Assembly (NCBI GenBank): GCA_965153355.1
Contig: OZ231126.1
Span: forward strand, 27,466,001-27,530,000
Reading direction: 5' to 3'
From: Flaccisagitta enflata
Taxonomy: Eukaryota
Length of the DNA stretch: 64,000 nt
Position numbers and translations under genes: made by a program
The notes under the pieces: generated by a model
The model's input: the letters and a program-made list of their open reading frames with translations, nothing else
What the model was told of the DNA's origin: nothing
Database searches by the model: none
Shown: in pieces, positions 27,092-30,000 of the stretch
How the letters are laid out: each line of letters starts with the position of its first letter
Position numbering within the stretch: position 1 is the first letter of the stretch

Positions 27092-30000
27092 TTAGGAAGC
27101 CCACGCTGCCAATTCAGCCATGTCGTCATCATCCTCGGTAGCTAGAAAAAGTATAAAGAATTACAGGTAGAGATCCCTATTGCAAAACTCGTACGCCGGT
27201 GGGCAGGGGTGACAGTCTAGTGGTGTGAGGGGTCTTACAGACATTAAGACAGGTGTAGTGAGGCTAAATCTATTTACAACTTCATCGAACGGACTGAGGG
27301 ACTTGCAGGTGTCAACTTTTTAGTCGCGTGAACGTATGTACTAGTTAAGGTCAATAGGTTTTCGTGATCGTTGGTCGGTCAGTTTTCTTTACTACTCTTC
27401 TGAAAGTCACCTTTCTTCATACCTTTGGCTTTTGATGGTCCTGCTGGAAGGGAATCTGCTGGAACTGATGGTAAGCCGACGTCGTCCGTGACACCAGTCG
27501 GTATTTTAATCAAGTTGAGGTCAAGCTCCTCCTGGAAAATCAATGGGACGTTTGATGATGAAACAGTTAATCATAACTTCGTCAACACGGTCTTCTCTAA
27601 AGAACGCATTTTGATGCACGAACCTGCTCCAGCTCGTCGAGTTCCGCCAGTAATTCATCCTCGTCTACGTCGGCGCCGAATCCTACTGGGTTGGAAATGG
27701 CCTCCGAAATCTCGTTGGCGATATCCTGCTGCTCTTGGATGTCGTCCATAAGGTCGGCGATCTTGTCTACGTCTCTGTTGAAAATGGATGAGAAAATGGA
27801 GGAGAGAAAGGACATGAGCAGTCCTCTGTGTAGAATCGGGAATTCGGGATGGCCGACAACTTACACATTCAGTGTTCACCACAAGTCTCAATTCTACTGA
27901 ATATTATGAGCGAACCCCGTCCATAGAGGCAATGAAGGACATCTGTAATACTTACAAGTCGTTGTGCGCTGCTTTGAGGGACTTAGAGGCCGTATGCATT
28001 GCTTTAAGAACTTCGGTGTTCGTCGACGCATTTTCCAGAGCTTCTCTTTGAAGTTCGATGGTGGAAAGGGTTCCGTCTATTTGACCCAAATTCTTCTCGT
28101 AACGTTTCTTGCGCTTTAAGGCTTGTATGGCAGCTGGAGGAGGAATGAAAGGGTGTCGCCTCACAATTAATCATGTCCCGTCACAATTGATCAATAATTT
28201 AACTAAGTATTTGTATTTTATATTAAGCATTACTATACAAAACGATACATCTGTAGGCGGCTATTTATGGCATGAAGAATCACGCGCTTTCTTATCATTT
28301 CTAATCATTGCATGATCAGTATTGCACCGCTTATATCCATTTAACACGTCGCTTATTTTGGCTTTCTGTGTAGCTTATCATTAGCATATACCTTCTATCC
28401 TTTCCGTTTTAGTTTAGATCGGTTCAGCCTTTGCGGTTTTTAAATGTGTGACACTTATTACTAATAGCACGAGATCCTAACTACACACTGTCCGTCCTAT
28501 ATATACTCACTTTCACCCGTTTCTATTTGCCTCTCTAGATAACAGCTTACTATCTACTAATCAGACGATATAAGAAGAAAGATAAACTCAGAAACATTGA
28601 TAGAATACGCCACTCTCGTGCCACCACGTAAGTTGCCATTTGGGGATAAATCGCAGCTTATATTGGTGCATCGCCAATTTACCCCTTGCGTGGCCCCCCA
28701 TCCTGTAAGTATCTGCTCTCTCCAGTGGATACTGCCCCGCCATTCTCTCCCTTGATTGGTCTTGTGGGTACTGTCAGCAGGATCACTGCTTTGGGTGTCC
28801 TTTTGCAGCTGTCCCAACCCCCTGGCTCTCTCTGCCCAGCTGTTAGGACGATCTTCCTTTTCACCCAGTTTTCGGGTCGAAGGCTGGCGTGAGATCCTTA
28901 CTGGAAGTGTCGTTGTAGTGGCTGGCCCCTCTCGCATGTTCCATAAAAGTTCGGTATCCCACCCCTCCCAACGACAGTCGTGTGCATCTGAGTACCTTTG
29001 AGTCCGTGGCAGCAGATGCCCAGCCCGAGTGTGTAAGTCTGCCGCTGCATTCACGGGTTGCCCAAGTCCCCCTCGATCCTAGGCTCTCATCCCTTTCCCG
29101 CTTCCCCCCGTCTGATCTCCCATCCTGCTGTTAGTGTTACCCCGATGAAAAGAAAGGGCACTATCGCTGAACCGATAGTTCCTGGCAGGCCGAAGTAGCC
29201 GGGATAACCCAACGGATTGTGAGCCCTTTCGCTGGAGTTGCGACCATCCTTTCAAATCTTTCCTTTCCTTACCCCGAGGCGATGAGATTGGCATATTCAG
29301 TCACCATTTAGAACCGCAATTTTAACAATTTTTAGCAAAGAATTGGCTTCGACACTTTTATTCATTATTTAACTGACGTTCACTTTTACGGTCCATTTTA
29401 CCCCTAAATTCACGACATTCCCCCAGTTTTAACACTTCCGTTTTTTTACGAGACATTTTACAAGTGCAATCTAGAGGCAGGGCATCAAAATAAACAAGAT
29501 ACAATGGCAGTTTCAAATGCACTCCCGCTTATCGTCTATATCCATGCAACGCGCACGGCCTTTAGCTTTGTGGTAACAGGAAGAATCGGAGGCGAAGAGT
29601 GCATCATTTCCTTCGGATCCAAGAAGCTCAGCAAATGCCAACAAAAGTGGTCAAATTTCAAGCTGGAAGCCAAAGCCATGGTCTACGCCGTCAAAGCCAA
29701 TGCCCAACTCCTTAGGGATCACGACTACATCATCGAGTCGGATTATCGCCCCCTCCAGGTGTTCCGTGCCGCTATCGCGCAGTTCTGGCAATCTTAAATT
29801 TTATTGCTGCCTTTTATTTCCAGTTATTATCCCCTCCCCCCTTTTTTCCCCGTGTTAGTAACTGGGAAGGGTAAAGCCCAGTCTAACCCTGCTGTGTCTG
29901 CTTAATTTTAACAACGCCTAAAAGACTGCTCAACTTATACTGGAAGTGTCTTTCGTGAATTTCAAGATTTGCAAAAATGCCTGTTAACGGAGAAGAAGTT

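Follow-up and report, generated by a model that had tools for sequence, protein, structure and literature searches.

The stretch of DNA analysed here (hereafter the window) comprises 64,000 nucleotides from Flaccisagitta enflata (assembly GCA_965153355.1, contig OZ231126.1, positions 27,466,001 to 27,530,000). It carries an intact-looking Ty3/gypsy-type long terminal repeat (LTR) retrotransposon of 14.6 kb (span 28252-44741). The 1.3-kb leader of this element, ahead of gag, contains a small open reading frame (ORF), ORF0, which extends on the + strand from the ATG at 29504 to the TAA at 29795-29797 and encodes 97 residues. ORF0 is free-standing and lies outside pol: a spacer of 179 nt separates it from gag, and the pol ORF is 1.8 kb downstream. 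The best reading of the sequence is that ORF0 encodes a selected, non-catalytic accessory protein derived from the ribonuclease H (RNase H) domain of the element's own pol.

Homology of ORF0 to the RNase H of pol

Residues 8-93 of ORF0 align with residues 656-741 of pol without a gap (BLASTP, 35/86 identical, or 41%; 54/86 positive; E 2e-20). An ungapped match of this kind had been put forward in the original prediction, made from the sequence alone, with a hand count of 33/79 identities, and the BLASTP alignment bears it out. The two Pfam families named there also recognize ORF0 above their cut-offs: RT_RNaseH (PF17917) with E 1.2e-12 and 48.3 bits (cut-off 24.8) over profile positions 5-86 of 105, and RT_RNaseH_2 (PF17919) with E 5.2e-9 and 36.5 bits (cut-off 29.8). 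When pol and gag are searched against the whole window by tblastn, no other pol-like or gag-like piece is found in the leader. Therefore, the pol-derived copy is confined to ORF0.

The RNase H in the pol of the window element retains all four acidic residues of the catalytic set (D, E, D, D). In the window ORF0, the corresponding set is H, E, D, and none: the first Asp is replaced by His13, the Glu (E55) and the second Asp (D80) are present, and the fourth acidic residue is absent, as ORF0 ends about 40 residues short of the ADALSR-type motif of pol in which that residue is located. Among the 23 family members that cover the first-Asp column, the residue is Y in 13, H in 9, and D in 1. The Glu is kept in 22 of 24 representatives (N and H in the others) and the second Asp in 23 of 24 (E in one). 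No member has the D-E-D triad (0/23), the sole carrier of the first Asp lacks the Glu, and every member ends before the fourth acidic residue. The residues assigned earlier are therefore correct for the window copy, but the Glu and the second Asp are not fixed across the family. On these residues, ORF0 would be unable to cut RNA.

The ORF0 family and its conservation

A word-indexed search with ORF0 returns nine clusters at the 90% identity level, with lengths of 76-105 aa and identities of 57-99%. An exhaustive search of 1.84 billion representatives gives 66 matches at E <=0.001. The three best are short proteins of 86, 78, and 104 aa, followed by two of 92 aa at 38-40% identity. All matches of at least 166 aa are pol-type RNase H with no more than 47% identity, and none of the 66 matches is a long protein with an ORF0-type domain, the search having been run without length limits. 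With a profile search, the family grows to 29 ORF0 clusters, whose lengths span 76-121 aa, and a single fragment of 45 aa. Thirteen of the 29 share a length of exactly 92 aa. A 92-aa protein cluster with 72 members, placed among the generic RT_RNaseH clusters, may represent this 92-aa type. The exact window ORF0 protein is on record from 61 contigs, the 86-aa type from 49, and the 80-aa type from 13.

Four proteins (P0053, P0054, P0056, and P0059) were considered as tandem RNase H proteins and rejected. All four are gene models of nested elements, either repeated or chimeric, in which the catalytic residues are normal, and they enter the tree described below as pol rows only. Two ORF0 members look like mosaics: P0035 joins the N-terminus of the 86-aa type to the C-terminus of the 97-aa type, and P0019 joins the N-terminus of the 97-aa type to the C-terminus of the 80-aa type. 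Such mosaics suggest that element subfamilies recombine in the course of reverse transcription. In one DNA contig, 29762-29854 is missing and with it the ORF0 stop, consistent with the variable C-termini of the family.

The start of the protein is shared. In 19 of 24 aligned representatives, the initial Met occupies the same column; the start is shifted upstream by one residue (MM) in two, the N-terminus is extended in another two, and P0052 starts at an internal Met. In the core (residues 8-84), the pairwise identity of the 24 representatives is 34-97%, with a median of 47% (276 pairs). The core alignment contains no internal gaps; the only departures are two truncations at the ends and a single inserted residue in P0125. 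With a tree length of 5.6 changes per site, 0.28 invariant columns would be expected under equal rates; 11 of the 77 core columns are invariant. Two invariant residues of ORF0 differ from pol, namely D74 (A in pol) and E78 (V or I in pol). E78 places a charge where strand 4 is hydrophobic, which may be an adaptation to a stand-alone fragment whose face is exposed by the missing C-terminal helices.

Between ORF0 and its pol segment, identity at the first, second, and third codon positions is 57, 58, and 35%, respectively, with a nonsynonymous divergence (dN) of 0.60 and a saturated synonymous divergence (dS). Free drift should have eroded the first and second positions as well. Among the reading frames, it is the ORF0 frame whose codon usage comes closest to that of gag and pol; like them, ORF0 has its highest GC content at third positions (0.62). 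Just upstream of ORF0, the leader of P0024, P0025, P0028, and P0039 encodes MQSRGRA(S/T)(R/K)KDTM in frame with ORF0; the same stretch in the window is related but lies in another frame and ends in a stop. Frame-changing indels thus occur beside ORF0, not inside it.

These data bear on one alternative, that ORF0 is a hitch-hiking relic: a pol fragment left in the leader by a template-switch duplication, its conservation only apparent because databases hold open frames and copies are young. Broken and truncated versions of ORF0 do exist, and the 80-aa type has spread. A relic does not readily explain, however, why frames stay open and the start lies within one residue of the common column in 21 of 24 representatives, at 34-45% identity and without frameshifts, when the neighbouring leader does shift frame. 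Nor does it account for third codon positions that are saturated against pol while first and second positions keep 57-58%, or for a length of exactly 92 aa in 13 of 29 clusters. We regard the relic as unlikely. Selection on a non-catalytic protein had been proposed from the window sequence, and the proposal is much strengthened by the 29 clusters, the shared start, the ungapped core, and the 11 invariant columns. ORF0 is kept by many diverged relatives, so it is probably useful to the element.

The identity range within ORF0 (35-99%) parallels that of the gag core (38-99%, 99 clusters). In two cases, an ORF0 and a gag cluster list the same length for the longest contig (ORF0 P0016 with gag P0133, 6760; ORF0 P0048 with gag P0143, 2681), and these paired values hint that ORF0 and gag share contigs at similar divergence. 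A scan for sister-copy DNA with the ORF0 alignment yields 192 pattern matches in metagenome contigs and 117 in viral contigs, with 0 confirmed in either set.

Single origin of ORF0 from pol

To place ORF0 relative to pol, we use a maximum-likelihood tree of 59 rows, consisting of 10 ORF0-type sequences, the RNase H of the window pol, and 48 RNase H segments of pol proteins from the exhaustive search, of which only those with an alignment of 100 residues or more were admitted. The ORF0 rows form a single clade (100/100), recovered in 100% of 200 bootstrap trees, and its stem measures 1.12 changes per site. This clade is nested within the clade formed by the window pol RNase H and its nearest relatives (100/99). 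The tree indicates that ORF0 was copied once from the pol of its own lineage and then spread with that lineage. Together with the lost catalytic set, it upholds the earlier view that ORF0 is a distinct duplicate, devoid of catalysis, of the type of RNase H that the element itself encodes.

The order of events is as follows. The first ~85 codons of the pol RNase H were duplicated once into the leader upstream of gag. The duplicated part extended from strands 1-3 through helix A and strand 4 into the beginning of helix B; the C-terminal third was never present. After the duplication, the catalytic set was lost and the copy diversified fast, a frame of about 80-105 codons staying open in many sublineages.

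Judged from the sequences, ORF0 has changed far more than the pol RNase H domain since the duplication. The pol RNase H domains of the element family are 69-87% identical to the window pol. The difference in rate (34-97% pairwise identity for ORF0 vs 69-87% for pol) is one reason to consider ORF0 as a decoy that mimics the RNase H surface and absorbs a host restriction factor aimed at the reverse transcriptase (RT), at RNase H, or at hybrids. The long stem branch and the variable charge of the family may be added, as traits typical of proteins engaged in conflict. A decoy has no known host partner, though none was sought, and rapid evolution fits relaxed constraint just as well, which leaves this role rather improbable.

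Predicted structure of ORF0

The structure of ORF0 was modelled by AlphaFold2 from an alignment of 35 rows that combined ORF0 types with short fragments of pol. The model has a predicted local distance difference test score (pLDDT) of 86 and a predicted template modelling score (pTM) of 0.74. It contains three strands (residues 9-15, 19-28, and 31-41), a helix (51-71), a fourth strand (75-79), and a second helix (82-96). The modelled protein is a four-stranded RNase H core: of the complete RNase H fold, it has the four strands and helices A and B only, and it lacks strand 5 and the C-terminal helices.

Foldseek places the RTs of cauliflower mosaic virus (CaMV), Moloney murine leukaemia virus (MMLV), xenotropic murine leukaemia virus-related virus (XMRV), foamy virus, and Ty3 as the best matches to the model. 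In alignments with VIA-align, the gypsy-type RNase H of CaMV RT (8R0S, residues 338-434) gives Z 10.9 and that of Ty3 RT (4OL8, chain B, residues 345-439) gives Z 8.7. The connection regions of foamy virus (residues 449-541, Z 9.3) and of XMRV and MMLV (residues 359-448, Z 9.1) score between these two, the range for these three viruses being 9.0-9.3 over 88-91 residues. The connection of human immunodeficiency virus 1 (HIV-1) RT (residues 317-405) and cellular RNase H1 give Z 6.5-7.3 and Z 6.4-7.6, respectively. The top scores lie within about 1-2 Z units of one another, and the predicted fold can be called a gypsy-type RNase H or connection-like core, no finer. A profile of the ORF0 family has no match among Protein Data Bank (PDB) sequences at E <=0.01, and the link to solved structures is made by fold search only. 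A predicted complex of ORF0 with pol residues 391-786 scores 0.00 in both runs, which were made without controls, and the result counts neither way.

Translation setting in the leader

The leader between the 5' LTR and ORF0 is depleted of ATG. It contains four, whereas 10.5 +/- 2.7 are expected from 2000 shuffles that keep the dinucleotides (P 0.0085); CAT, the reverse complement used as a control, is present 17 times in the same leader. The four ATGs open ORFs of 6-21 codons, and three of the four are in a weak context. ORF0 is the first long ORF, and its start, gatacaATGG, has the best context in the leader, with A at -3 and G at +4, in agreement with the good context ascribed to it before. 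Downstream, ATG is absent from 29701 to the gag start; for the spacer alone, 0 vs 1.84 expected is not significant (P 0.10).

A CAG/GT at ~29759 was considered as a splice donor that would join ORF0 to a downstream exon. We reject it because the tails past the R-P-L motif still align to helix B of pol across sublineages. Joints in mapped contigs are not read as splicing either, since the sites fall in low-complexity acidic-repeat stretches or in diverged copies.

This setting would suit a translational gate, in which ORF0 is an upstream ORF (uORF) that sets, through reinitiation, how many ribosomes reach gag, and the peptide itself is without function. The first long ORF with the best start context, in an ATG-depleted leader and with an ATG-free spacer of 179 nt behind it, is what such a gate would look like, and the length of the C-terminus varies by sublineage (76-121 aa). 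However, a pure uORF places no demand on the peptide it encodes, yet the core of ORF0 keeps 11 of its 77 columns unchanged over 5.6 changes per site, and its replacements are conservative. The free variation expected of a regulatory uORF peptide is not seen among the representatives, whose core also lacks internal gaps. D74 and E78 are invariant in a family-specific manner and differ from pol. In the model, the hydrophobic core pattern of RNase H is kept well enough for a confident fold, and the missing ATG in the spacer is, as noted, not significant. A gate and nothing more is thus an unlikely account of ORF0.

The host element and other content of the window

The features of the host element are collected in Table 1.

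Table 1 Features of the ORF0-bearing element in the window
Feature	Position	Strand	Basis or remark
Target-site duplication CATC	5' copy 28248-28251; 3' copy 44742-44745	+	Abuts outer ends of 5' LTR and 3' LTR
5' LTR, 411 bp, TG start, TATATA at 28498	28252-28662	+	Match to 3' LTR pieces
Primer binding site-like TGGTGCATCGCCAA	28664-28677	+	Starts TGG, 1 nt past 5' LTR; tRNA partner not assigned
Leader before ORF0, ATG-poor, four short uORFs only	28663-29503	+	ATG count vs shuffles
ORF0, 97-aa truncated, catalytically dead RNase H-derived gene	29504-29797	+	BLASTP, Pfam, tree, model, family alignment
Spacer from ORF0 stop to gag start, without ATG	29798-29976	+	ATG count
gag, 447 aa, Arg/Asp/Gly/Asn-rich tail	29977-31320	+	No Pfam family; 99 related clusters, 38-99% identity
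pol frame: protease DTG, RT, intact RNase H, integrase, long low-complexity tail	31251-37088	+	Overlaps gag end, -1 frame
Parent-type segment, pol RNase H residues 656-741 matched by ORF0	33576-33833	+	Coordinates counted from pol start 31611
ORF3, 977 aa, inside element	38187-41120	+	No family above cut-off
ORF4, 276 aa, inside element	41128-41958	+	No Pfam family matched
Purine-rich tract, polypurine-tract-like, before 3' LTR	42385-42400	+	
3' LTR, interrupted at 42591/44502 by 1.9-kb insertion	42402-44741	+	LTR alignment

The assignment to the Ty3/gypsy (Metaviridae) type follows from the LTRs, the target duplication, the primer binding site, the polypurine tract, gag, and the pol order of protease, RT, RNase H, and integrase. 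The 5' LTR matches the pieces of the 3' LTR at 191/191 positions (42402-42591) and at 98.3% over 240 aligned columns (44502-44741). The TGG at the start of the primer binding site is the typical one in LTR elements, where it pairs with the CCA end of a tRNA. Counted from its first ATG, the pol ORF covers 31611-37088 (1825 aa), with the DTG protease motif upstream of that ATG. The Pfam matches in pol are, in order, RVT_1, RNase H, integrase zinc finger, and integrase core, with a single RNase H region. After the integrase, the C-terminus of pol (35100-37088) is a Pro/Ser/Thr/Ala-rich low-complexity stretch of ~700 residues that matches no Pfam family.

ORF3 and ORF4 lie between pol and the 3' LTR, within the target duplication, and account for the unusually large size of the element. 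The only family match of ORF3, to DNA_pol_A_exo1 (3'-5' exonuclease family), stays below threshold (E 0.035, 14.3 bits vs a cut-off of 23.6), and ORF3 has no match among PDB sequences. A bin within ORF3 (40250-40731) has very high depth in two RNA-library runs (78.6 and 329), which probably stems from low-complexity cross-matches.

The 1.9-kb insertion in the 3' LTR (42592-44501) has a target duplication of its own, ~16 bp of the LTR (AGCCTTTGCGGTTTTT) being repeated on its two sides. Within the insertion, 22-bp units are arrayed in tandem at 43216-43596, accompanied by repeats of 121 nt and, near 43990, by an extended (CA)n run. A related copy, 81-89% alike, is located at 57016-57760.

Contigs of four sequencing runs were mapped on 28200-42650 at 80% likeness, which gave 2576 pieces with 1970 differences and 174 indels. 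In one run, 2052 contig pieces match the element, 711 of them at least 99% alike, and the stretch is also present in marine metagenome runs. The element family is therefore abundant and recently active. A 480-nt RNA-library contig carries an LTR end (28609-28662) and an LTR start (42402-42463) in separate places, with a run of T ahead of 42402. The LTR boundaries (end at 28662, start at 42402) are supported by this contig and by loose contig ends, all of which stop or start there. The 12 indels listed among these 174 all lie at 28551-29444, where depth peaks, and are not counted as evidence.

Outside the element, the window contains one ORF that carries DUF1759 (10012-11664, + strand, E 1.5e-5), a domain found in retroelement proteins of the BEL/Pao type, and another that carries SPRY (60081-60773, + strand, E 1.9e-18). 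A short ORF that resembles an exon (27597-27815, - strand) lies close to the element on its upstream side, and its acidic C-terminus looks, by eye only, Snf7/CHMP-type.

Possible role of ORF0

In the excerpt of PMC11363490, the RNase H activity of Ty3 RT is carried by one subunit of a substrate-induced dimer, a second molecule of CaMV RT is required for RNase H cuts, and restricted access of RNase H to the hybrid is described as central to how RT works. The second-molecule RNase H of Ty3 and CaMV, together with the known cases of degenerate RNase H taken up in the next section, leads us to read ORF0 as a modulator of the complex between RT and hybrid. In this reading, ORF0 is a real accessory gene, a dead RNase H copy of single origin that is translated from the leader and tunes RT/RNase H on the RNA/DNA hybrid. 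We assign it a probability of about 0.4.

Its steps would be these. Scanning ribosomes would reach ORF0 on the full-length RNA through the ATG-poor leader. The product would be a small protein with a four-stranded sheet and helices, similar to the gypsy-type RNase H core or the retroviral connection domain. The free dead core may then compete for, or fill, the place of the RNase H of the second RT on the RT-hybrid complex, acting in trans; this is the least certain step. RNase H cutting or RT pairing would be tuned as a result, with either sign, help or restraint. Gating of the number of ribosomes that reach gag would be a by-product of ORF0 translation.

In a more specific form of this proposal, ORF0 would be a trans-encoded 'free connection domain' that sits at the RNase H place of the second RT subunit and controls where and when RNA is cut, for example by sparing the polypurine primer. 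We consider this form doubtful. If true, the step from which the retroviral tether domain arose would have been repeated independently, this time by a separate gene and not by a domain internal to pol.

The same Ty3-type mechanism, in which RNase H works via a second subunit (PMC11363490, excerpt), makes a dead competitor conceivable. ORF0 may accordingly be pictured as a means of self-restriction, a dominant-negative fragment that interferes with RT pairing or RNase H action and so limits copy number. As might be expected of a self-inhibitor, ORF0 is encoded by the element, comes first on the RNA, and reproduces one of the element's enzyme domains in shortened, inactive form. However, the element is highly repeated (the 2052 pieces, 711 of them at least 99% alike, given above), so any restriction must be weak, and the same evidence suits a helper role equally. 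Self-restriction therefore has little probability, about on a par with the translational gate. The gate and the relic fit the conserved peptide badly, whereas self-restriction and the decoy differ from RT/RNase H tuning mainly in the sign of the effect or in the partner.

Several observations weigh against ORF0 as a modulator of RT/RNase H. Some members are truncated or frameshifted (P0015, P0023, P0027, P0028, and P0048), some of them at the C-terminus. A sublineage of 80 aa (P0045) stops before the D-Y-R-P-L motif and is found on at least 13 contigs; its spread indicates that the C-terminal part, or even the whole gene, may be dispensable for spread. The isoelectric point varies from 5.0 to 10.6 across the family, unlike that of a uniform nucleic-acid binder. 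There are 99 gag clusters vs 29 ORF0 clusters, and many relatives may thus lack ORF0. The case for selection is built from protein patterns and one paralogue comparison, and protein databases, which show open frames only, introduce an ascertainment bias. With regard to expression, the RNA-library contigs listed extend to 29494 and 29340, short of ORF0, and the bin 29646-30127 has no RNA-library depth in either of the two RNA runs. Finally, a first ORF of 97 codons normally lowers translation of gag, which is a cost unless regulation is its purpose.

Comparison with known systems

Accessory ORFs upstream of gag and degenerate RNase H within pol are known already. For the stand-alone variant, an ORF derived from RNase H and placed ahead of gag, we find no published description in the literature searched, supplementary files aside.

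The closest parallel is with the retroviral connection (tether) domain and the gypsy-type RNase H (gRNH) of plant Tat elements. According to the excerpt of PMC4408406, retroviruses and Tat elements each retained a degenerate gypsy-type RNase H beside an active one. ORF0 resembles both in having a predicted gypsy-type RNase H fold, gypsy-type ancestry, and lost catalytic residues, with an active RNase H elsewhere in the element. It differs in arrangement. The tether and the Tat gRNH are inside pol, between RT and a newly acquired active RNase H, and it is the old domain that degenerated. In the present system, the old RNase H is active in pol, and the degenerate, truncated duplicate is a separate gene upstream of gag. 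The free-standing ORF0 is accordingly not part of one polypeptide with the RT thumb and a second active RNase H.

The RNase H of Ty3/gypsy and caulimovirus RT (PF17917; 4OL8, 8R0S) is both the direct sequence ancestor of ORF0 and its best fold match. Unlike these domains, ORF0 is without roughly the last third of the domain and the full catalytic set, and it is outside pol.

In its non-standard site between the 5' LTR and gag, ORF0 is like the extra ORFs of plant Tat/Ogre-type elements, which encode PMD or Tr28 domains (PMC4408406, excerpt). Those domains are of host or transposase origin, whereas ORF0 comes from the element's own pol. ORF0 thereby adds a self-derived type to the accessory ORFs of LTR retrotransposons, most of which have no known origin.

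Yeast Ty1 makes p22, a truncated Gag that serves in copy-number control and arises from an internal start within gag. Both p22 and ORF0 are truncated inactive versions of an element's own protein, made by the element. In contrast to p22, which is capsid-derived, ORF0 is enzyme-derived and comes from a duplicated gene, and inhibition by ORF0 is only conjectured.

The pairing of a dead RNase H with a live one, in which the dead one became a regulator in retroviruses and Tat elements, occurs here in a third form, with the dead partner encoded by a small gene of its own. Such a gene is easily expressed alone and can be added to or omitted from RT assays, and in this form the role of a degenerate RNase H becomes directly testable.

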